From Escherichia coli (GTDB lineage: Bacteria > Pseudomonadota > Gammaproteobacteria > Enterobacterales > Enterobacteriaceae): a stretch of 64,000 nucleotides of DNA. Positions 4,237-30,185 of the stretch are shown here, piece by piece (positions within the stretch are counted from its first letter, which is position 1; every line of letters begins with the position of its first letter). Under the pieces are notes generated by a model that was not told the origin of the DNA, did no database searches, and saw nothing but the letters and a program-made list of their open reading frames with translations. The position numbers and the translations under genes were made by a program. The stretch lies in the NCBI RefSeq assembly GCF_003334315.1, contig NZ_QOWR01000005.1. One strand, written 5' to 3'.

Positions 4237-5700
4237 TTACATCTTGGTATAAGGCTTAAAGCGTTCCTGCAGCTGGCGCAACTGGTCGATGCGCGCATCG
4301 TAACGCGCTTGTTGCAGGCTGCCTAATTTCACCTGCGAACTGGCGCTACTCAACAGCGAAATGGCCTGATCGAGTCGTCCGGCGAGCGCATAACCTTCTG
4401 CTCGCGCAGCCAGCTCCTGATCGCGGTTATTTAGCGCGGCTTCCGCCTGTGCCAGTAAATCCCAGCCGTTGCTGTCATCTTTATTATTAAAGGTGTAGCG
4501 ATTGAGAATATTGGCCGCTTCTTGTGGTTGACCGCCTTGCAGATAAGCGTTTGCCAGGTTGAGCTGCAACACCGGATTGGTGCGCAAATCACGGGCATTT
4601 TTCAGGCGATTGATTGCCTCATTGGCTTTGTTTTGCCCAAGATCGATATCGGTAGCCAGATCGAGATACCATGCGTTGCCAGGTTCTGCCGCCAGTAACG
4701 GTTGCAGCGTTTTACGCGCCTCGTCGTATTTATTGGCTTCCATCGCCTGTAAAGCACGACCATATTGCGCCGCTCGTTGCTGACGAACGTTTCCTTTCGC
4801 CCATTCATCCAGCAAATCACTGGTGAGCTGGTTACGTCCGGAATTATACATCCCCAGTGTGCGCGCTTTCGCCAGATAGAAATCTTCCGACGACTGCACC
4901 ACCATCGGTCGCATCTGATTAGCACGGTTGCGGGCATCTGCCAGACGACTTTCCGGCAACGGGTGAGTCAATAAAATTTCCGGCGGGCGCGAGGAGTAAC
5001 GCGCCTGATCGAGTAATTTTTCGAGGAAGGTTGGCATCGCCTGCGGATCGAATCCCGAGCGTTGCAGCACCTGAATACCAATGCGGTCCGCTTCCTGTTC
5101 ATTTTGCTGGGTGAAACTGATCATCCCCTGACGTGTTCCCGCCAGTGTACCGGTCAGCGCCGCCATCCCCGCCTGCGGACTGGCCATCGCCAGTAAAATA
5201 GAACCTAACGCGCCGACCCAGGTCAGCGGCGCGCTGCGTTGTTGATCTTCCATCGCTCGCGCCAGGTGACGTTGGGTGACGTGGGAGATTTCGTGCGCCA
5301 TAACTGAAGCCAGTTGACTTTCGTTATCGGAATAACGGAACAGGGCAGAGTGCAGCACCACGTTGCCGCCAAAGAAAGCAAAGGCGTTAATTTCGTCGTT
5401 GTTGATCAGAAAAAAATGAAACGGTGTCTTAACCGAATTGGCATGCGAAACCAGACGCATCCCCAGCGAATTAATATATTGCGTTAACAGCGGGTCATTA
5501 ATTAACGGCGCGCTGCCGCGTAGCTGGCGGACATAATAGTCGCCCATCTGCATTTCCTGACCAATGGAAAGCGTGCTTCCTGCGGAGGTTCCCATATCCG
5601 GCAAGGTGTCTGCGCTGTCGGCAAACGCCGGGGCTACCTGACCAATGGTCATAGCAGCAATGAGGGTTGCAACCAGGTTTTTTTTCAACTGCCTGAACAT
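4237..5700 (-). CDS. bepA: periplasmic beta-barrel assembly-enhancing protease (M48 metalloprotease with TPR domain)
   Basis: 487 codons from ATG 5700: [27 protein letters not shown] (signal peptide); HEISH zinc motif present; track ORF extends to 5772 but that lies upstream of the sigma-E promoter. Confidence 0.95.
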
Positions 5701-5731
5701 AACCTCTATCCTGTATTTCTGAAGATAGTCA

Positions 5732-5759
5732 TTTGACCGATACTGTGAAATATCGTTCC
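5732..5759 (-). promoter_or_regulatory. sigma-E (RpoE) type promoter for bepA
   Basis: Minus strand reads GGAACGA-N16-TCAAA (consensus GGAACTT-N16-TCAAA); -10 at 5736-5732, about 30 nt upstream of bepA ATG; bepA is a known sigma-E regulon member. Confidence 0.7.
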
Positions 5760-5912
5760 CACCGCGCCGCATTTGAGTGTAACGGCGAAGATTAGCCCAC
5801 TCAAATGACTTTTCAGTTTCCTGAATCCGTCATAAAAAGCGAAGTCTTTTTTGTGACATTTCGATACAATTGCGGATCGCAATCCCGCTCTTGAGGTTCA
5901 GGGAAGGTCTTT

Positions 5913-21886: not shown

Positions 21887-22031
21887 ACTGGTTATTCCTT
21901 TAAGGGGTGAGTTGTTCTTAAGGAAAGCATAAAAAAAACATGCATACAACAATCAGAACGGTTCTGTCTGCTTGCTTTTAATGCCATACCAAACGTACCA
22001 TTGAGACACTTGTTTGCACAGAGGATGGCCC

Positions 22032-22910
22032 ATGTTCACGGGAAGTATTGTCGCGATTGTTACTCCGATGGATGAAAAAGGTAATGTCTGTCGGGCTAGC
22101 TTGAAAAAACTGATTGATTATCATGTCGCCAGCGGTACTTCGGCGATCGTTTCTGTTGGCACCACTGGCGAGTCCGCTACCTTAAATCATGACGAACATG
22201 CTGATGTGGTGATGATGACGCTGGAGCTGGCTGATGGGCGCATTCCGGTAATTGCCGGGACCGGCGCTAACGCTACTGCGGAAGCCATTAGCCTGACGCA
22301 GCGCTTCAATGACAGTGGTATCGTCGGCTGCCTGACGGTAACCCCTTACTACAATCGTCCGTCGCAAGAAGGTTTGTATCAGCATTTCAAAGCCATCGCT
22401 GAGCATACTGACCTGCCGCAAATTCTGTATAATGTGCCGTCCCGTACTGGCTGCGATCTGCTCCCGGAAACGGTGGGCCGTCTGGCGAAAGTAAAAAATA
22501 TTATCGGAATCAAAGAGGCAACAGGGAACTTAACGCGTGTAAACCAGATCAAAGAGCTGGTTTCAGATGATTTTGTTCTGCTGAGCGGCGATGATGCGAG
22601 CGCGCTGGACTTCATGCAATTAGGCGGTCATGGGGTTATTTCCGTTACGGCTAACGTCGCAGCGCGTGATATGGCCCAGATGTGCAAACTGGCAGCAGAA
22701 GGGCATTTTGCCGAGGCACGCGTTATTAATCAGCGTCTGATGCCATTACACAACAAACTATTTGTCGAACCCAATCCAATCCCGGTGAAATGGGCATGTA
22801 AGGAACTGGGTCTTGTGGCGACCGATACGCTGCGCCTGCCAATGACACCAATCACCGACAGTGGTCGTGAGACGGTCAGAGCGGCGCTTAAGCATGCCGG
22901 TTTGCTGTAA
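22032..22910 (+). CDS. dapA: 4-hydroxy-tetrahydrodipicolinate synthase
   Basis: 292 codons from ATG 22032: [47 protein letters not shown]... Confidence 0.97.
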
Positions 22911-22926
22911 AGTTTAGGGAGATTTG

Positions 22927-23961
22927 ATGGCTTACTCTGTTCAAAAGTCGCGCCTGGCAAAGGTTGCGGGTGTTTCGCTTGTTTTATTACTCGCTGCCTG
23001 TAGTTCTGACTCACGCTATAAGCGTCAGGTCAGTGGTGATGAAGCCTACCTGGAAGCGGCACCGCTTGCGGAGCTTCATGCCCCGGCTGGAATGATTTTG
23101 CCGGTGACCTCCGGTGATTATGCAATCCCGGTGATCAACGGTAGTGGTGCTGTCGGTAAGGCGCTGGACATTCGTCCACCAGCCCAGCCGCTGGCACTGG
23201 TTTCTGGCGCGCGTACCCAGTTCACGGGCGATACCGCTTCATTGCTGGTGGAAAATGGTCGTGGCAATACTCTGTGGCCGCAGGTGGTTAGCGTGCTGCA
23301 GGCGAAAAACTACACCATCACCCAACGTGATGATGCTGGTCAGACACTGACCACCGATTGGGTACAATGGAACCGTCTGGACGAAGACGAGCAGTATCGT
23401 GGTCGTTATCAAATCTCTGTTAAGCCGCAGGGTTATCAGCAGGCGGTTACGGTTAAACTGCTGAACCTGGAACAGGCGGGCAAACCGGTTGCAGACGCGG
23501 CTTCCATGCAGCGTTACAGCACGGAGATGATGAACGTTATTTCCGCCGGTCTGGATAAATCTGCCACTGACGCCGCGAACGCTGCGCAAAATCGTGCCTC
23601 CACCACTATGGACGTACAAAGTGCAGCTGATGACACCGGTTTACCAATGCTGGTCGTACGCGGGCCGTTCAATGTGGTTTGGCAACGTCTGCCAGCGGCG
23701 CTGGAAAAAGTGGGCATGAAAGTGACCGACAGCACCCGTTCGCAGGGCAACATGGCCGTAACTTATAAGCCGCTGTCTGACAGCGACTGGCAGGAACTGG
23801 GCGCGAGCGATCCAGGCCTGGCATCCGGTGACTATAAACTGCAGGTTGGCGATTTAGATAACCGCAGCAGCCTACAGTTCATCGATCCGAAAGGTCATAC
23901 TCTGACTCAGAGTCAGAACGACGCGCTGGTAGCTGTCTTCCAGGCTGCGTTTAGCAAGTAA
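22927..23961 (+). CDS. bamC: outer-membrane lipoprotein BamC (BAM complex)
   Basis: 344 codons: [28 protein letters not shown]... with lipobox LLAAC. Confidence 0.96.
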
Positions 23962-23967
23962 AAATAC

Positions 23968-23994
23968 AGGGCTGGAATCATCCGGCCCTTTTTT
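23968..23994 (+). terminator. intrinsic terminator after bamC
   Basis: Stem agggctgga/tccggccct (one G-U), loop atca, followed by T6. Confidence 0.75.
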
Positions 23995-24004
23995 CTGATA
24001 TGAT

Positions 24005-24020
24005 ACGCAAACGTGTGCGT
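24005..24020. promoter_or_regulatory. PurR operator (pur box) of purC
   Basis: acgcaaacgtgtgcgt, 15/16 match to ACGCAAACGTTTGCGT, in the purC upstream/leader region. Confidence 0.75.
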
Positions 24021-24066
24021 CGGCAGGAAAACGCGATTTTAGCGGTAATTCGCACGAAATTTGTTT

Positions 24067-24120
<54 letters not shown>

Positions 24121-24173
24121 CACCAGACAGCAAAAGATTTTAAAACGTTAATTCACACCCAGGAGTGATAAAG

Positions 24174-24887
24174 ATGCAAAAGCAAGCTGAGTTGTATCGT
24201 GGTAAAGCGAAAACCGTATACAGCACGGAAAACCCGGACCTGTTGGTGCTCGAATTCCGCAATGATACGTCAGCAGGGGATGGCGCGCGCATTGAGCAGT
24301 TTGATCGCAAAGGTATGGTGAACAACAAGTTCAACTACTTCATTATGAGCAAACTGGCTGAAGCGGGTATCCCGACTCAAATGGAGCGTCTGCTCTCCGA
24401 TACCGAATGTCTGGTGAAAAAGCTGGATATGGTGCCGGTTGAGTGTGTCGTGCGTAACCGTGCTGCGGGCTCTCTGGTGAAACGTCTTGGAATCGAAGAA
24501 GGTATTGAGCTGAACCCGCCGCTGTTCGATCTGTTCTTGAAAAACGACGCCATGCACGATCCGATGGTCAACGAATCTTACTGCGAAACCTTTGGCTGGG
24601 TAAGCAAAGAGAACCTGGCGCGTATGAAAGAGCTGACCTACAAAGCGAACGACGTGCTGAAAAAACTGTTCGATGATGCTGGTCTGATTCTGGTCGACTT
24701 CAAGCTGGAGTTTGGCCTGTACAAAGGTGAAGTCGTACTGGGCGATGAGTTCTCTCCGGACGGCAGCCGCCTGTGGGACAAAGAAACGCTGGAGAAAATG
24801 GACAAAGACCGTTTCCGCCAGAGCCTCGGTGGCCTGATCGAGGCCTATGAAGCCGTCGCCCGCCGCCTGGGTGTACAGCTGGACTGA
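24174..24887 (+). CDS. purC: SAICAR synthetase (phosphoribosylaminoimidazole-succinocarboxamide synthase)
   Basis: 237 codons from ATG 24174: [37 protein letters not shown]...; SD aggag 24161-24165. Confidence 0.97.
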
Positions 24888-25054
24888 TTTTTCTGTTCAT
24901 CATCTTGCCGTGCAGCTGGCACGGCAAGACAACCGCTCTCGGAAGATGTGCATTGAACGCTCATTCCTCCGCCATTTCATCCCGCTTTCCTGTGGTAATC
25001 TTCCTCTGAACCACCTACGATCATTTCTATAATGAATATATTGTTGAGGTATCT

Positions 25055-25918
25055 ATGCGTTGGCAAGGGCGACGTGAAAGTGACAATGTTGAAGACAGGC
25101 GCAACAGCTCTGGTGGTCCGTCTATGGGCGGTCCCGGTTTTCGCCTGCCAAGCGGTAAAGGCGGGCTGATTTTACTGATAGTCGTGCTGGTTGCAGGCTA
25201 CTATGGCGTTGATTTAACCGGGTTGATGACCGGGCAGCCGGTTTCTCAACAGCAATCAACGCGGTCAATTAGCCCAAATGAGGACGAAGCCGCAAAATTC
25301 ACCTCAGTGATTCTGGCAACCACGGAAGATACCTGGGGACAACAGTTCGAAAAGATGGGTAAGACCTATCAGCAACCGAAGCTGGTCATGTACCGTGGAA
25401 TGACGCGTACCGGATGCGGGGCGGGCCAGTCCATAATGGGGCCGTTCTATTGCCCGGCGGATGGCACGGTTTATATCGATCTCTCCTTCTATGATGACAT
25501 GAAAGACAAACTTGGCGCGGATGGCGATTTTGCCCAGGGGTACGTTATCGCCCATGAAGTCGGTCATCATGTGCAGAAACTGTTAGGCATCGAGCCGAAA
25601 GTTCGTCAACTGCAACAAAACGCGACGCAGGCGGAAGTGAACCGCTTATCTGTGCGTATGGAACTCCAGGCCGACTGTTTTGCCGGTGTCTGGGGGCATA
25701 GTATGCAGCAGCAAGGCGTTCTGGAAACCGGCGATCTGGAAGAGGCGCTGAATGCGGCGCAGGCCATCGGCGATGACCGTTTACAACAGCAAAGTCAGGG
25801 GCGAGTAGTACCAGACAGTTTCACTCATGGCACTTCTCAGCAACGCTACAGCTGGTTTAAACGTGGTTTCGACAGCGGCGATCCGGCACAATGCAATACT
25901 TTTGGTAAAAGCATTTAA
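25055..25918 (+). CDS. ypfJ: predicted membrane-anchored zinc metalloprotease (zincin fold), function unknown
   Basis: 287-codon ORF; N-terminal TM helix [16 protein letters not shown]; HEVGH motif at codons 167-171 (nt 25553-25567). Confidence 0.9.
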
Positions 25919-25932
25919 CTTCCGGGGCAGGG

Positions 25933-27948
25933 ATGGCTGAACTGACTGCGCTTCACACATTAACAGCGCAAATGAAACGTGAAGGGATCCGCCGCTTACT
26001 GGTGTTGAGCGGGGAAGAGGGTTGGTGTTTTGATCATGCGCTTAAGTTACGTGATGCCTTACCTGGCGACTGGCTGTGGATTTCGCCGCAGCCAGATGCT
26101 GAAAACCACTGTTCTCCCTCGGCACTACAAACTTTACTTGGGCGCGAGTTCCGGCATGCGGTATTCGACGCCCGCCACGGCTTTGATGCCGCTGCCTTTG
26201 CCGCACTTAGCGGAACGTTGAAAGCGGGAAGCTGGCTGGTTTTGTTACTCCCTGTATGGGAAGAGTGGGAAAACCAACCTGATGCCGACTCGCTGCGCTG
26301 GAGTGATTGCCCTGACCCTATTGCGACGCCGCATTTTGTCCAGCATTTCAAACGCGTACTTACGGCGGATAACGACGCTATCCTCTGGCGGCAAAACCAG
26401 CCGTTCTCGTTGGCGCATTTTACTCCCCGTACTGACTGGCACCCCGCGACCGGCGCACCACAACCAGAACAACAGCAACTCTTACAGCAGCTACTGACCA
26501 TGCCGTCGGGCGTGGCAGCGGTAACTGCTGCGCGTGGGCGCGGTAAATCGGCGCTGGCAGGGCAACTCATTTCTCGTATTGCGGGCAGTGCGATTGTCAC
26601 CGCGCCCGCAAAAGCGGCAACGGATGTACTGGCACAATTTGCGGGCGAGAAGTTTCGCTTTATTGCGCCGGATGCCTTGTTAGCCAGCGATGAACAAGCC
26701 GACTGGCTGGTGGTCGATGAAGCCGCAGCCATACCTGCGCCGTTGTTGCATCAACTGGTATCGCGTTTTCCTCGAACGTTGTTAACCACTACGGTGCAGG
26801 GCTACGAAGGCACCGGACGTGGTTTTTTGCTGAAATTTTGCGCTCGCTTTCCGCATTTACACCGTTTTGAACTGCAACAGCCGATCCGCTGGGCACAGGG
26901 ATGCCCGCTGGAAAAAATGGTTAGTAATGCACTGGTTTTTGACGATGAAAACTTCACCCATACACCACAAGGCAATATCGTCATTTCCGCATTTGAACAA
27001 ACGTTATGGCGAAGCGAGCCAGAAACGCCGTTAAAGGTTTATCAGTTATTGTCTGGTGCGCACTACCGGACTTCGCCGCTGGATTTACGCCGGATGATGG
27101 ATGCACCAGGGCAATATTTTTTACAGGCGGCTGGCGAAAACGAGATTGCCGGAGCGCTGTGGCTGGTGGATGAGGGGGGATTATCTCAACAACTCAGTCA
27201 GGCGGTATGGGCAGGTTTTCGTCGCCCGCGGGGTAATCTGGTGGCCCAGTCGCTGGCGGCGCACGGCAGCAATCCACTGGCGGCGACATTGCGTGGACGG
27301 CGGGTCAGCCGGATAGCAGTTCATCCGGCTCGTCAGCGGGAAGGCACAGGGCGGCAACTTATTGCTGGTGCTTTGCAATATACGCGTGACCTCGACTATC
27401 TTTCGGTGAGTTTTGGTTACACCGGGGAGTTATGGCGTTTCTGGCAACGCTGCGGTTTTGTGCTGGTGCGAATGGGTAATCATCGTGAAGCCAGCAGCGG
27501 TTGCTATACGGCGATGGCGCTGTTACCGATGAGTGATGCGGGTAAACAGCTGGCTGAACGTGAGCATTACCGTTTACGTCGCGATGCGCAAGCTCTCGCG
27601 CAGTGGAATGGCGAAATGCTTCCTGTTGATCCACTAAACGATGCCATCCTTTCTGACGACGACTGGCTTGAACTGGCCGGTTTTGCTTTCGCTCATCGTC
27701 CGCTATTAACATCGTTAGGTTGCTTATTGCGTATGCTACAAACCAGTGAACTGGCATTACCGGCGCTGCGTGGGCGTTTACAGAAAAACGTCAGCGACGC
27801 GCAGTTATGTACCACACTTAAACTTTCAGGCCGCAAGATGTTACTGGTCCGTCAGCGGGAAGAGGCCGCGCAGGCGCTGTTCGCACTTAATGATGTTCGC
27901 ACTGAGCGTCTGCGCGATCGCATAACGCAATGGCAATTTTTTCACTGA
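25933..27948 (+). CDS. tmcA: tRNA(Met) cytidine acetyltransferase (helicase-like ATPase + GNAT)
   Basis: 671-codon ORF MAELTALHTLTAQMKREGIRRLLVLSGEEGWCF...; Walker A AARGRGKSALAG. Confidence 0.93.
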   Translation: MAELTALHTLTAQMKREGIRRLLVLSGEEGWCFDHALKLRDALPGDWLWISPQPDAENHCSPSALQTLLGREFRHAVFDARHGFDAAAFAALSGTLKAGSWLVLLLPVWEEWENQPDADSLRWSDCPDPIATPHFVQHFKRVLTADNDAILWRQNQPFSLAHFTPRTDWHPATGAPQPEQQQLLQQLLTMPSGVAAVTAARGRGKSALAGQLISRIAGSAIVTAPAKAATDVLAQFAGEKFRFIAPDALLASDEQADWLVVDEAAAIPAPLLHQLVSRFPRTLLTTTVQGYEGTGRGFLLKFCARFPHLHRFELQQPIRWAQGCPLEKMVSNALVFDDENFTHTPQGNIVISAFEQTLWRSEPETPLKVYQLLSGAHYRTSPLDLRRMMDAPGQYFLQAAGENEIAGALWLVDEGGLSQQLSQAVWAGFRRPRGNLVAQSLAAHGSNPLAATLRGRRVSRIAVHPARQREGTGRQLIAGALQYTRDLDYLSVSFGYTGELWRFWQRCGFVLVRMGNHREASSGCYTAMALLPMSDAGKQLAEREHYRLRRDAQALAQWNGEMLPVDPLNDAILSDDDWLELAGFAFAHRPLLTSLGCLLRMLQTSELALPALRGRLQKNVSDAQLCTTLKLSGRKMLLVRQREEAAQALFALNDVRTERLRDRITQWQFFH

Positions 27949-28021
27949 CTCCTTCAATTTTCTCCCATGGTCATTGTGAGTCAGCGGCGTAAAATTAATG
28001 ACATCAGTTAAGGAGTTCGCC

Positions 28022-28720
28022 ATGAAACATGACCATTTTGTTGTTCAAAGCCCGGATAAACCTGCGCAACAGTTGTTACTGCTTTTCCACGGTGTCGGGG
28101 ATAACCCGGTGGCAATGGGGGAAATAGGTAGCTGGTTTGCACCGCTGTTTCCTGATGCGCTGGTGGTGAGTGTCGGTGGCGCGGAGCCGAGCGGTAATCC
28201 GGCGGGGCGTCAGTGGTTTTCGGTGCAGGGTATTACGGAAGATAATCGCCAGGCGCGTGTGGATGCGATCATGCCGACGTTTATTGAAACGGTGCGCTAC
28301 TGGCAGAAACAGAGCGGAGTAGGGGCTAACGCCACGGCGCTAATCGGTTTCTCTCAAGGCGCGATTATGGCGCTGGAGAGCATTAAAGCCGAACCGGGCC
28401 TTGCTTCGCGCGTCATTGCCTTTAACGGACGCTATGCGAGCCTGCCGGAAACCGCGTCTACAGCAACGACAATTCACCTGATTCATGGTGGTGAAGATCC
28501 GGTTATCGATCTGGCGCATGCGGTTGCGGCGCAGGAAGCGTTAATCAGTGCCGGTGGTGACGTGACGCTGGATATCGTGGAGGATTTAGGCCATGCGATC
28601 GACAATCGCAGTATGCAATTTGCCCTGGATCACTTGCGTTATACCATTCCTAAACATTATTTCGACGAAGCGCTAAGTGGCGGTAAGCCTGGCGATGATG
28701 ATGTGATTGAAATGATGTAA
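28022..28720 (+). CDS. ypfH: alpha/beta-hydrolase family esterase
   Basis: 232 codons from ATG 28022: MKHDHFVVQSPDKPAQQLLLLFHGVGDN...; GFSQG nucleophile elbow. Confidence 0.92.
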   Translation: MKHDHFVVQSPDKPAQQLLLLFHGVGDNPVAMGEIGSWFAPLFPDALVVSVGGAEPSGNPAGRQWFSVQGITEDNRQARVDAIMPTFIETVRYWQKQSGVGANATALIGFSQGAIMALESIKAEPGLASRVIAFNGRYASLPETASTATTIHLIHGGEDPVIDLAHAVAAQEALISAGGDVTLDIVEDLGHAIDNRSMQFALDHLRYTIPKHYFDEALSGGKPGDDDVIEMM

Positions 28721-28735
28721 AAGACAGATTACCAG

Positions 28736-28816
28736 GCCTGATAAGACGCGTGAGCGTCGCATCAGGCATCGTTCACCATTGCCGGATGCGGCGTGAACGC
28801 CTTATCCGGCCTACGG
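28736..28816. repeat. REP/BIME elements (two units)
   Basis: gcctgataagacgcgtgagcgtcgcatcaggc and gccggatgcggcgtgaacgccttatccggcctacgg. Confidence 0.85.
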
Positions 28817-28829
28817 TTGAGCACTCAGC

Positions 28830-29030
28830 TTACTTCTTCGGTTGATCCTTTTTCGGCCAGTCGTCGTCATCGTCCCACTTATCGTTGAAATCACGATGCG
28901 GGGGAAGCTCCGGCTTGTTGGCGAGAAATTTCTTATGGTCGACGCGCTTGAGATCTTTAATCACGTTCAGCAGGACGCCTACCAAAAAGACAATCACCAG
29001 AATCCACCAATATTTAGCCAGCCAGTCCAT
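28830..29030 (-). CDS. ypfN: small membrane protein YpfN (UPF0370)
   Basis: 66 codons from ATG 29030: [66 protein letters not shown]. Confidence 0.88.
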
Positions 29031-29057
29031 GCTTATTTCCTCTTGCAGAACCACTCA

Positions 29058-30185
29058 TCAGGCGACGAGCTGTTCCATGATACGTTGATACATACGGGCA
29101 AGTAGCTGCAGGTCGGCAGCGTTCACACATTCATTAATTTTATGAATAGTGGCATTGACCGGCCCGAGTTCCACCACCTGCGCCCCCATGCGGGCAATAA
29201 AGCGCCCGTCGGACGTTCCGCCTGTGGTCAGTAGCTGCGGTTTAATTTCATTATAGTGCTCAACCGCGTTAACGACCGCATCCACCAGTTTACCGCGCGC
29301 GGTCAAAAATGGCTGCCCGGAAAGCCACCAATCCACCGTATAGCGCAGTTGATGTTTTTCAAGCAGGGCAAGCACCTGCGCTTTGATCATCTCATCAGTC
29401 AGTTCGGTGCTGAAGCGGAAGTTAAACTGCACAAACAGTTCACCCGGAATAACGTTGTTACTGCCCGTTCCCGCCTGAATATTGGCAATCTGCATACTGG
29501 TCGCCGGGAAGAATTCATTGCCCTGATCCCACTCAATAGCCACTAATTCATTAAGGAAAGGTGCTGCGCGATGTACCGGATTGTCAGCCAGATGTGGGTA
29601 GGCAACATGCCCCTGAACGCCATGAATGGTAAGGTTGCAGGTTAATGATCCGCGACGACCATTTTTCACCACATCACCTACCACTTCGATACTCGACGGT
29701 TCGCCAACCAGGCAGTAATCGAGACGCTCATTACGTGCCATTAACGCTTCGACGACTTTTACCGTACCGTTGTGGGCACTGGCTTCTTCATCAGAGGTGA
29801 TCAGAAATGCCAGTCGCCCCGTATGGTTGGGATGTTGTGCGACAAAACGTTCTGCCGCCACCACCATCGCCGCCAGCGAGCCTTTCATATCTGCCGCACC
29901 GCGCCCGAATAACATGCCGTCACGAATGGTGGGTTCAAACGGGGGATTGATCCAACGATCGGCGTCGCCAGGCGGCACCACGTCGGTATGCCCGGCAAAG
30001 GCTAACGTTTCACCCTGCCCACGCCATGCCCAAAAATTCTGCGTATCGGCAAAGTCCATGCGTTCAACGGTAAAACCGATCGCCTGCAAACGTTCAATCA
30101 ACAAAGCCTGGCATCCTGCATCATCAGGACTCAGGGAAGGGCGGCGAATAAGCTGTTGTGTCAGCTCAATAACCGGGCACGACAT
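29058..30185 (-). CDS. dapE: succinyl-diaminopimelate desuccinylase (M20 peptidase)
   Basis: 375-codon [59 protein letters not shown]... Confidence 0.97.

Follow-up and report, generated by a model that had tools for sequence, protein, structure and literature searches.

The E. coli gene ypfJ most probably encodes a small gluzincin-type zinc endopeptidase, the ortholog of Klebsiella pneumoniae KPN_02809, with one N-terminal hydrophobic segment as its anchor in the inner membrane, a flexible tether of ~20 residues and a catalytic domain that most likely faces the periplasm. We put the probability of this reading at about 70%. The gene lies in a 64,000-nucleotide stretch of E. coli chromosomal DNA, which we refer to as the window.

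ypfJ is a core gene with a biochemically characterised ortholog

The gene was delimited from the ORF list, Pfam, NCBIfam and the RefSeq annotation:

25055–25918, + strand: ypfJ coding sequence, ATG start, 287 amino acids plus stop

YpfJ matches PF04228 in Pfam with 498 bits (E 9.1e-150; residues 1-283 on model positions 1-290). In NCBIfam it scores 380 bits against NF050010 ('KPN_02809 family neutral zinc metallopeptidase'), for which the cut-off is 250; this family takes its name from KPN_02809. The DNA of the ORF is 100% identical to annotated ypfJ in E. coli chromosomes, and ypfJ was found in all of the complete genomes searched (5426/5426). The ORF at 25055–25918 is an ordinary, already annotated core E. 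coli gene, and Pfam, NCBIfam, RefSeq and the DNA identity all bear out its designation in the preliminary description as ypfJ, upstream of tmcA. The YpfJ family comprises 10,385 clusters at 50% identity and is present in Proteobacteria, Cyanobacteria, Bacteroidota, Planctomycetota, Nitrospirota and other phyla.

K. pneumoniae KPN_02809 and E. coli YpfJ are 82% identical over 100% of their length. They share the N-terminal motif, the apolar segment, HEVGHH, ExxAD, four Cys and membership of an equivalog family. HEVGH stands at 171-175 in KPN_02809, in agreement with the published numbering, and at 167-171 in E. coli YpfJ. We see no difference of substance between the two proteins, which are orthologs.

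KPN_02809 of K. pneumoniae MGH 78578 was purified in 2012 and found to be a zinc-dependent protease that hydrolyses casein (PMC3269727). The protein contained 1.2 Zn per molecule, compared with 0.4 in the H171S mutant, and was inhibited by EDTA, 1,10-phenanthroline and DTT (PMC3269727). Activity was lost in the HExxH mutants H171S and E172D (PMC3269727), which correspond to H167 and E168 of E. coli YpfJ. The active protein was made in the BL21 cytoplasm, and the assays used casein only, with a GST fusion purified in Triton from a 2000 g supernatant (PMC3269727). The preliminary description had stated that ypfJ has no assigned function, while allowing for a characterised function of which it was unaware. 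Such a function exists and the statement is refuted, since the 82%-identical ortholog is a zinc-dependent protease in vitro (PMC3269727). Zinc-dependent peptidase activity has been shown for KPN_02809 only and would extend to E. coli YpfJ by orthology. Our literature search on YpfJ and the PF04228 family found no functional study after 2012. A Y. pestis ypfJ insertion was without phenotype in the one assay reported.

Because ypfJ is an annotated core gene of a family named after a characterised ortholog, our reading of it adds little; both the gene and the protease activity of its family are already known. As to its role, YpfJ would probably be a rather unspecific peptidase, with unfolded envelope proteins or peptides close to the membrane as its likely class of substrate.

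The catalytic domain has a predicted gluzincin-like fold

The features of the catalytic domain are as follows:

25274–25915, + strand: predicted gluzincin-type catalytic domain, residues 74-287 (backing helix 74-100, five strands 109-142, active-site helix 158-176, glutamate helix 192-219)
25439–25453, + strand: G129-P-F-Y-C133, almost invariant in the family (modelled as a strand at 131-133)
25553–25570, + strand: HExGHH signature H167-E-V-G-H171-H172, two putative zinc-binding His plus the putative catalytic Glu, in predicted helix 158-176
25661–25675, + strand: ExxAD motif E203-L-Q-A206-D207, after the active-site helix in the long predicted helix 192-219
25823–25846, + strand: T257-H258-G259...R264, an invariant C-terminal motif recognised by family conservation

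In the predicted fold of YpfJ, the HExxH active-site helix and then a helix with the Glu ligand lie under a beta sheet with its backing helix. This is the architecture of gluzincins, and the fold is predicted to be gluzincin-like (a zincin of clan MA with Glu as the third zinc ligand). The zincin motif HEVGH had been placed at nucleotides 25553-25567, which is exact and corresponds to residues 167-171. Among 227 homologs, H167 is conserved in 224, E168 in 223, H171 in 226 and H172 in 220.

The ExxAD motif is conserved to the same extent, with E203 in 223 homologs and both A206 and D207 in 224. The conserved Glu/Asp-rich region noticed earlier downstream of HEVGH is real, as E203, D207, D240 and D241 are each kept in 220-224 of the 227. 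By analogy with other gluzincins, the third zinc ligand would be E203, and the carboxylate of D207 would orient a His. The spacing from HExxH to this Glu is 36 residues in YpfJ; the third-ligand motif of M4 peptidases is NExxSD, 20 residues past HExxH.

Two further motifs may take part in substrate binding. The GPFY residues are found in nearly all of the 227 homologs (G129 in 226, P130 in 225, F131 in 224 and Y132 in 227), and the substrate-binding edge strand of M4 and M13 peptidases is NAFW/NAFY. By analogy, G129-P-F-Y-C133 may be the substrate-binding edge strand of YpfJ. In the C-terminal motif, H258 and G259 are each conserved in 223 homologs and R264 in 224. H258 and R264 would be the transition-state or substrate-binding His/Arg, parallel to H711 and R717 of neprilysin.

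A working mechanism can be proposed on this basis. The proposed zinc ligands are the two HEVGH histidines of the active-site helix (H167 and H171) and E203 from the ExxAD motif of the following helix; E168 would activate the water. D207, H258 and R264 would serve as second-shell or substrate-binding residues, and the GPFYC strand would bind the backbone of the substrate.

YpfJ differs from the M48, M13 and M4 peptidases

Sequence searches with YpfJ, by phmmer against PDB sequences and by hmmsearch with the family profile, returned chance hits only (E above 0.3), and Foldseek returned no significant PDB hit. The KPN_02809 paper proposed that the protein belongs to family M48, from threading on PDB 3C37 (PMC3269727), and YpfJ could on that account be an HtpX/BepA/Ste24-like peptidase. 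We consider M48 membership very unlikely. Pfam found no PF01435 (M48) match in YpfJ, and hhalign of the YpfJ family against E. coli BepA aligned 18 columns at a probability of 21%. We rejected M48 membership because this alignment covers the HExxH helix alone. Members of M48 and the minigluzincins (BepA/YfgC, HtpX, PDB 3C37, proabylysin, projannalysin) also have anchors and accessory domains unlike those of YpfJ. The BepA used for hhalign is encoded within the same window as ypfJ.

Membership of M13 was likewise rejected. YpfJ is about 10% identical in sequence to M13 enzymes (neprilysin, PepO, M. tuberculosis Zmp1, ECE-1), with no sequence-level match, and shows neither sequence homology to neprilysin/PepO nor their two-domain form of ~650-700 residues. 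In M13 enzymes, which have 600-700 residues, a second, large helical domain closes over the active site; the domain of YpfJ is bare and measures ~210 residues. The M4 enzymes (thermolysin, LasB, aureolysin) are secreted with a large propeptide and no membrane anchor; YpfJ, in contrast, is predicted to be anchored.

A remote relative is the elastinase FP0506 of Flavobacterium psychrophilum, whose best Pfam match by HHpred is PF04228 (E 1.8e-19; PMC6414381). Like YpfJ, FP0506 has HExxH plus ExxA, and it is an extracytoplasmic, active protease (PMC6414381). FP0506 departs from YpfJ in being a lipoprotein that lacks the N-terminal motif, is confined to Flavobacteriaceae and has elastin as its substrate (PMC6414381).

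A single predicted membrane anchor precedes a catalytic domain that is most likely periplasmic

The N-terminal transmembrane helix of the preliminary description corresponds to one membrane-type hydrophobic segment, which is flanked by a linker and a tether:

25103–25159, + strand: Gly-rich linker, residues 17-35 (low pLDDT; variable in length across the family, mean 17 residues)
25160–25210, + strand: apolar segment, residues 36-52, uniformly apolar (Kyte-Doolittle 2.05), a predicted signal-anchor membrane helix
25211–25273, + strand: Gln/Ser-rich tether, residues 53-73, joining the apolar segment and the catalytic domain (low pLDDT; sequence variable, with no homolog under 15 residues)

The best 19-residue Kyte-Doolittle window of YpfJ, at residue 36, scores 2.05 and marks a single hydrophobic stretch; no second one was found in the whole 287-residue protein. 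Across the family the apolar segment is 15-32 residues long, with a mode of 17. The mean number of K+R in 150 homologs is 2.6 in the 15 residues ahead of this segment and 0.4 behind it.

The cysteines covary as expected of disulfides. C208 and C280 occur together in 180 of 227 homologs and are jointly missing from 38, with 9 discordant cases (Fisher p 3e-33); they form the top MI-APC pair in the whole protein. C121 and C133 are both present in 225 of the 227. Disulfides C121-C133 and C208-C280 would stabilise the domain. In addition, a lipobox variant (P0122), matched to the profile from position 74 onward, exceeds the family cut-off. The covariation of the Cys pairs, the K+R bias, this lipobox variant and the inhibition of the ortholog by DTT argue for an extracytoplasmic catalytic domain. 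A type II (N-in/C-out) topology agrees with the hydrophobicity of the segment, the K/R distribution, the disulfide-type Cys covariation and the lipoprotein variant, yet the N-terminal motif coevolves with the C-terminal domain and is predicted to touch it.

A catalytic domain that faces the cytoplasm, by way of a monotopic anchor or a reverse orientation, would reconcile this N-terminal docking with the simplest biogenesis, as export would not be needed, and the active ortholog did come from the BL21 cytoplasm (PMC3269727). Such an arrangement is nevertheless unlikely, given that two Cys pairs are gained or lost together, that KPN_02809 is sensitive to DTT and that the K/R bias has the opposite direction.

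We considered export routes and processing. Tat export, suggested by the RR at 15-16 and by a possible folded pre-export state, appears unlikely from the sequence: 19 residues separate this RR from an h-region that is very hydrophobic, and an F-L-K context is missing. Cleavage by signal peptidase was rejected, as no conserved AxA-type site follows the apolar segment, where the consensus is (L/F)-G-x-(D/N)-P. Homologs with the motif and without the apolar segment (P0136) were not accepted as soluble forms, since they look like frameshifted metagenomic calls, and several other N-terminally odd homologs look incomplete.

The N-terminal motif coevolves with the catalytic domain

The family also shares a motif at its very N-terminus:

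25055–25102, + strand: N-terminal motif, residues 1-16, position-locked and conserved from Met1 (family consensus MRWxxxRxSxNVEDRRG)

The motif can also be given as MRWxGRRxSxNVEDRR. Of 151 homologs that carry the motif, 142 have its NVED-type core at residue 11. The motif at residue 11 together with an apolar segment is present in 150 of 224 sampled family members, E. coli included; most exceptions are variants beyond the strict pattern or N-terminally incomplete metagenomic calls, and one is a lipoprotein-type variant.

Structure prediction and covariation both place the motif on the catalytic domain. In model 1, residues 1-20 have pLDDT 98/91, and strand 12-15 is paired to the domain sheet. 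An independent model, built from a Calothrix query with a non-overlapping alignment of 48 sequences, gives pLDDT 96/90 and strand 12-14. The motif is docked on the catalytic domain in both models, with pLDDT above 90. Among all residue pairs in the MI-APC ranking, which is validated by C208-C280 ranking first, W3-V85 is second, R7-A88 fourth and E8-K81 fifth. In these pairs each residue is the best hit of the other, and the helix positions involved (81/85/88/92) share one face. Charge swaps occur between these positions, with E8 paired to K/R81 or R8 to D/E81, and R7 to D92 or E7 to K92. The swaps are scattered over the tree and fall in different sequence subsets; the number of independent events is overestimated because the tree used for counting is poorly resolved. 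In the lipoprotein variant that has no motif, the helix face is altered (V85A, A88D, E91Q, D92A). If both linkers tied a single anchor to a single domain, a correlation of their lengths could be expected, but none was seen (Spearman 0.11). The tether, at 15 residues or more, is long enough for the chain to return along a helix.

The N-terminal tail thus seems, in models and in covariation, to contact the catalytic domain across the predicted membrane helix. The evidence for this contact is strong, and it conflicts with the simple N-in/C-out picture. A tentative solution is that residues 1-16 belong structurally to the catalytic domain, adding an edge strand to it and shielding the exposed side of helix 74-100. 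Residues 17-73 would then be an excursion that dips into the membrane, with both chain ends on one side and no classical single pass. In a variant of this idea, the motif would contact the domain only in a folded, pre-export state. The high-pLDDT docking repeated in the Calothrix model, the MI-APC pairs W3-V85, R7-A88 and E8-K81 on one helical face, the charge swaps at 8/81 and 7/92, the changed helix face of the motif-less lipoprotein variant and a tether that is never shorter than 15 residues are all consistent with such an arrangement. Against this, the apolar segment is uniformly hydrophobic, 17-20 residues long and without a central turn, its clear K/R bias is what a spanning signal anchor would show, and an N-terminal tail with six or seven K/R is a poor candidate for translocation. 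The uncorrelated linker lengths and the overcounting of events on a poorly resolved tree also speak against it, AF2 takes no account of membranes, and lipoprotein variants fold without the motif, which is to that extent dispensable.

On balance, we regard it as possible, though doubtful, that the first 16 residues of the YpfJ family are a coevolving piece of the catalytic domain instead of a free cytoplasmic tail, with the 'transmembrane' segment acting as a looped-out anchor or with the domain folding together with the tail before, or without, conventional Sec insertion. If this were true, standard predictors would miscall the membrane topology or biogenesis of a widespread family with over 10,000 clusters at 50% identity. 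A real contact between motif and domain would change how YpfJ is built or regulated. The conflict between a single-pass topology and the packing of the motif on the catalytic domain may be of interest to specialists in membrane proteins and proteases.

Linkage of ypfJ to tmcA and ypfH is confined to Enterobacterales

Two genes follow ypfJ on the same strand:

25933–27948, + strand: tmcA (tRNA cytidine acetyltransferase), starting 14 nucleotides past the ypfJ stop
28022–28720, + strand: ypfH (esterase), 73 nucleotides past the tmcA end

For ypfH we take the RefSeq start at 28022 instead of 27998, where the longer ORF opens, since the first residue of that ORF covered by the NCBIfam profile is residue 9. 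The three genes had been described as co-oriented and tightly linked, with gaps of 14 and about 70 nucleotides, and the gaps of 14 and 73 nucleotides agree with this. The order ypfJ/tmcA/ypfH is kept in 11 sampled genera of enterobacteria. The wider purC-ypfJ-tmcA-ypfH synteny does not extend beyond Enterobacterales, and four genera (Yersinia, Rahnella, Acerihabitans and Providencia) show interruptions. A gene for a 150-residue membrane protein lies between ypfJ and tmcA in Yersinia and Providencia and overlaps the tmcA start; Providencia has one more ORF, and its purC is 4.4 kb distant. At 64 non-enterobacterial loci, including Aeromonas, Haemophilus and Rodentibacter, none had tmcA, ypfH or purC within 7 kb of the ypfJ homolog, and no other neighbour recurred beyond the family level. 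This neighbour analysis used all ORFs, high-GC loci included. Because the ypfJ-tmcA-ypfH linkage is found only in Enterobacterales and is interrupted even there, it indicates local synteny and not a functional module.

An operon in which ypfJ, tmcA and ypfH encode three enzymes of one pathway is therefore extremely improbable. The genes do share a strand, short gaps with no terminator-like site between them, and a common order in 11 sampled genera of enterobacteria, but none of the 64 other loci keeps the linkage, insertions split ypfJ from tmcA in Yersinia and Providencia, and the predicted compartments differ, as TmcA acts on cytoplasmic tRNA and the YpfJ domain is most likely periplasmic.

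A conserved candidate promoter precedes ypfJ

A terminator scan found no terminator-like site between ypfJ and tmcA. The 14-nucleotide gap is too small for a terminator plus a promoter, so some co-transcription of the two genes is likely. The earlier proposal that ypfJ, tmcA and ypfH are co-transcribed probably holds in part, while its value as a functional clue is weakened by a synteny limited to Enterobacterales. Long-read data show transcripts that enter ypfJ from upstream, in a unit named the 'dapA-ypfJ operon' (SMRT-Cappable-seq, bioRxiv 10.1101/262964). Three features lie between purC and ypfJ:

24903–24929, + strand: predicted 11-bp, G+C-rich hairpin without a T tract, just past the purC stop
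24991–25024, + strand: intergenic block TGTGGTAATC-N9-ACCACCTACGATCAT, kept from Escherichia to Yersinia within an otherwise unconserved spacer
25046–25049, + strand: Shine-Dalgarno GAGG, 5 nucleotides before the ypfJ ATG, with GAGG/GGAG conserved there in the enterobacterial alignment

The hairpin at 24903–24929 fails the T-run rule of the terminator scan, and non-homologous hairpins stand at the same site in other Enterobacteriaceae. It is probably a partial terminator or a 3'-end stabiliser for purC transcripts. The block at 24991–25024 contains a -35-like TGGTAA (24993-24998) and a -10-like TACGAT (25016-25021) separated by a 17-nucleotide spacer, and we regard it as a candidate promoter or operator of ypfJ. 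A perfect TATAAT at 25028-25033 in E. coli is not conserved. We propose that ypfJ may be transcribed both from its own conserved candidate promoter and by read-through from dapA/purC, probably with some co-transcription with tmcA/ypfH.

An Rfam scan of 21900-29200 returned REP-type naRNA4 matches only, with nothing inside ypfJ. A promoter-like site is present at 27968-27995 within the tmcA-ypfH gap, and a REP element lies behind ypfH at 28735-28811.

YpfJ belongs to a characterised family of zinc metallopeptidases

The features of the ypfJ gene and its product are as follows.

25055-25918, + strand: ypfJ ORF, ATG start, 287 codons
5 nt 5' of the ATG, + strand: GAGG Shine-Dalgarno sequence
25553-25567, + strand: HEVGH (residues 167-171)
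Residues 36-52: sole hydrophobic stretch (best 19-residue Kyte-Doolittle window, 2.05)

The + strand order is dapA, bamC, purC, ypfJ, tmcA, ypfH, with 14 nt between the ypfJ stop and the tmcA ATG and 73 nt between the tmcA stop and the annotated ypfH start at 28022. The ORF, HEVGH, hydrophobic stretch and both gaps agreed with the preliminary description when checked. Several E. coli chromosomes match a 1.2-kb region around ypfJ at 100% identity, and all 5426 complete E. coli genomes in the collection contain the ypfJ region. Two metagenomic proteins of 383 and 428 aa (P0001 and P0151) consist of a 100%-identical YpfJ with N-terminal extensions of 96-141 aa. Directly before Met1, P0001 carries the in-frame translation of the 33 nt 5' of the ypfJ ATG, and these extensions are probably gene-calling artefacts, not longer isoforms.

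RefSeq labels the gene 'ypfJ: KPN_02809 family neutral zinc metallopeptidase'. Pfam PF04228 covers YpfJ end to end (E 9e-150), and YpfJ scores 380 bits with the NCBIfam equivalog NF050010, whose cut-off is 250. The family comprises 10,385 clusters at 50% identity (E up to 1e-3), and a species-level genome scan found members in Proteobacteria, Cyanobacteria, Bacteroidota, Planctomycetota, Nitrospirota, Calditrichia and others.

The preliminary description gave YpfJ no assigned function, a statement contradicted by work on its K. pneumoniae ortholog and family namesake, KPN_02809, a demonstrated zinc-dependent protease (PMC3269727). Over its full length, the K. pneumoniae cluster representative shares 82% identity with E. 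coli YpfJ, and it has HEVGH at 171-175, in agreement with that paper. Wong et al. 2012 detected KPN_02809 mRNA and purified the protein in Triton X-100 as a GST fusion, which cleaved succinylated casein best at 30°C and pH 8 (PMC3269727). The enzyme contained 1.2 Zn per molecule and was inhibited by EDTA, 1,10-phenanthroline and DTT, while PMSF had no effect; H171S was inactive and lost zinc, and E172D was inactive (PMC3269727). The paper is silent on a membrane segment and on topology (PMC3269727). Thus ypfJ is already known, as an annotated gene with a characterised ortholog, and the known function of the family is limited to general proteolytic activity.

Literature searches by Pfam, COG and locus identifiers found no functional study of the family later than 2012. 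A ypfJ insertion in Y. pestis left psaA expression unchanged, and ypfJ is listed among the ASKA clones that increase HOCl resistance. The gene also appears in one co-expression list and one predicted sRNA target list, and has been used as a flanking marker. Going by the LT2 gene order, Salmonella STM2486 is probably ypfJ. STM2486, a 'putative inner membrane protein', has been reported to be a substrate of SPI-1 T3SS translocation when fused to Cya, and was also picked up in a fimbriae screen (PMC3617162, PMC2527010).

YpfJ is modelled as a gluzincin

Two AlphaFold2 models were built, one from E. coli YpfJ with 77 homologs and the other from a Calothrix homolog with 48 different sequences. Both catalytic domains were confident (pLDDT mostly >90; pTM 0.87 and 0.84). 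The modelled elements, a long helix (74-100), five short strands (109-142), the HEVGH helix (158-176) and a long helix carrying E203 (192-219), follow the gluzincin order of backing helix, sheet, active-site helix and glutamate helix. Foldseek returned no significant match, and sequence and profile searches of the PDB gave none either, so that no solved structure is that of a close relative.

Comparison proteins (protein, family, value)
Neprilysin, M13, 9.6
PepO, M13, 9.5 / 9.2
Zmp1, M13, 9.2
Thermolysin, M4, 8.9
DPP III, (blank), 8.8
BepA, M48, 8.5
PDB 3C37, M48, 7.6

Near-invariant positions in 227 members are H167, E168, H171, H172, E203, A206, D207, G129-P-F-Y132, D240, D241, H258, G259, R264 and W267. 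In E203-x-x-A-D207 the third-ligand motif takes its ExxAD form, which is typical of M13 and M48 too, and the predicted fold suggests a His-His-Glu zinc geometry.

The 2012 paper placed the protein in M48. Pfam detects no PF01435 in YpfJ, and the profile of our M48 comparator, the periplasmic zinc protease BepA, aligns over only 18 columns around HExxH.

4237-5772, - strand: bepA/yfgC, 20 kb from ypfJ

M48 membership finds no support at the sequence level, and we therefore regard YpfJ as a gluzincin family of its own, acting in the manner of a minimal neprilysin- or thermolysin-type enzyme.

The catalytic domain is predicted to lie outside the cytoplasm

YpfJ has four cysteines, at positions 121, 133, 208 and 280. 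Of 227 members, 225 have both C121 and C133. For C208 and C280, 180 members have the two, 38 have neither and 9 have only one (Fisher p 3e-33), and covariation between these positions is the strongest in the whole protein. This two-pair behaviour is the signature expected of disulfides and fits the DTT sensitivity of KPN_02809. Across 150 homologs, K+R averages 2.6 in the 15 residues preceding the apolar segment and 0.4 in the 15 following it. Finally, one metagenomic homolog (P0122) has its N-terminal motif and apolar segment replaced by a lipobox (LTAC) and a Pro/Thr-rich linker, yet from profile position 74 on it scores above the cut-off of the family. These three lines of evidence, cysteine pairing, charge bias and a lipoprotein variant, point to an extracytoplasmic catalytic domain.

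An N-terminal motif covaries with the catalytic domain

Members of the family begin with a motif locked to Met1, of consensus MRWxxxRxSxNVEDRRG; of 151 sequences that carry the motif, 142 have its NVED core at residue 11.

25055-25102, + strand: N-terminal motif (residues 1-16)
25295-25330, + strand: residues 81-92, within helix 74-100

In both AlphaFold2 models residues 1-20 sit against the catalytic domain at pLDDT 90-98, and residues 12-15 pair with its sheet as a beta strand; pLDDT is ~50 over the Gly-rich linker, apolar helix and Gln-rich tether. Because AlphaFold ignores membranes, we tested the contact independently by covariation (mutual information with APC, 188 full-length sequences). 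Behind the disulfide pair, W3-V85, R7-A88 and E8-K81 rank second, fourth and fifth among all YpfJ pairs, with R7-D92, N11-E91, N11-T90, R15-T117 and E13-T138 ranking lower. The motif-domain partners are reciprocal best hits, and positions 81, 85, 88 and 92 share one face of helix 74-100.

At 8/81, 53 sequences combine E8 with K/R81 and 22 combine R8 with D/E81; at 7/92, 133 combine R7 with D92 and 5 combine E7 with K92; at 3/85, V/T/A accompanies W3 and K/R/Q accompanies L3. Such residue patterns are those expected of direct contact. The swapped states are dispersed over a neighbour-joining tree, and the 8/81 and 3/85 partitions barely overlap, so one split between clades does not account for them; the tree is poorly resolved and its event counts are upper bounds. 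P0122, which lacks the motif, has changes on the helix face that would meet it (V85A, A88D, E91Q, D92A). The weaker couplings of strand 12-15 aim at strands 109-119 and 138-142 and not at the GPFYC strand, which is invariant, so the motif appears to be an edge element of the structure and not to plug the substrate cleft.

This contact is at odds with the predicted topology: a cytoplasmic tail touching a periplasmic domain is topologically impossible in a single-pass protein. Three readings would remove the conflict. The apolar segment could be a looped-out or monotopic anchor, which would leave motif and domain on one side of the membrane; however, it is uniformly apolar, with no central turn and a positive-inside bias, and the lengths of the two linkers are uncorrelated. 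Alternatively, the contact could belong to a folded pre-export state, or the covariation and both models could be misleading. We put the chance that the conflict reflects a truly unconventional topology or biogenesis at roughly 30%.

Linkage to tmcA and ypfH is confined to Enterobacterales

We searched 80 loci, one genome per species, for the E. coli neighbours. The order gcvR / dapA-bamC-purC-ypfJ-tmcA-ypfH / ypfN-dapE is kept in 11 enterobacterial genera. The ypfJ-tmcA distance is ~0.5-0.6 kb in Yersinia, Rahnella and Acerihabitans and 1.4 kb in Providencia, where purC lies 4.4 kb off, beyond an opposite-strand transporter cluster. Two loci carry an inserted gene between ypfJ and tmcA.

Yersinia locus L012, 7986-8438: gene for a 150-aa multi-pass membrane protein
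Providencia locus L013, 8824-9276: gene for a 150-aa multi-pass membrane protein

The inserted protein has no NCBIfam match. The end of its gene overlaps the tmcA start by about 14 nt, and in both genera tmcA appears coupled to it rather than to ypfJ. Among the 64 non-Enterobacterales loci (Aeromonas, Haemophilus and Rodentibacter included), none has an E. coli neighbour within 7 kb of ypfJ. No other neighbour recurs above the family level, the maximum being 8 loci (Comamonadaceae-like) or 7 (Rhizobiaceae-like). Confinement to Enterobacterales and the interruptions within it argue that the ypfJ-tmcA-ypfH linkage is lineage-specific synteny, uninformative on function. Co-transcription with tmcA and ypfH, as previously suggested, thus has no evolutionary backing; with only 14 nt between the two genes in E. 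coli itself, read-through of ypfJ transcripts into tmcA should be almost inevitable.

Candidate transcription signals flank ypfJ

24077-24121: REP-type element between bamC and purC (Rfam naRNA4, RF02564; weaker, 30.9 bits)
24903-24929: perfect 11-bp G+C-rich hairpin TCTTGCCGTGC-AGCTG-GCACGGCAAGA, 16 nt after the purC stop, without a T tract
24991-25024: intergenic block TGTGGTAATC-N9-ACCACCTACGATCAT upstream of ypfJ, with TGGTAA, a 17-nt spacer and TACGAT
25028-25033: perfect TATAAT
27968-27995: promoter-like site in the 73-nt tmcA-ypfH gap (TGGTCA, 16-nt spacer, TAAAAT)
28735-28811: REP element at the cluster end after ypfH (naRNA4, RF02564; 92.6 and 60.8 bits on the two strands, both above gathering)

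The block at 24991-25024 is conserved from Escherichia to Yersinia, while the remaining purC-ypfJ spacer is not, and is a candidate ypfJ promoter or operator; a consensus promoter scan did not pick it up. The extra TATAAT of E. coli is not conserved. Transcripts reach ypfJ from upstream too, since the SMRT-Cappable-seq authors show a 'dapA-ypfJ operon' with condition-dependent read-through. The site at 27968-27995 suggests that ypfH may have its own promoter besides read-through from upstream. In other Enterobacteriaceae, unrelated hairpins occupy the same position after purC.
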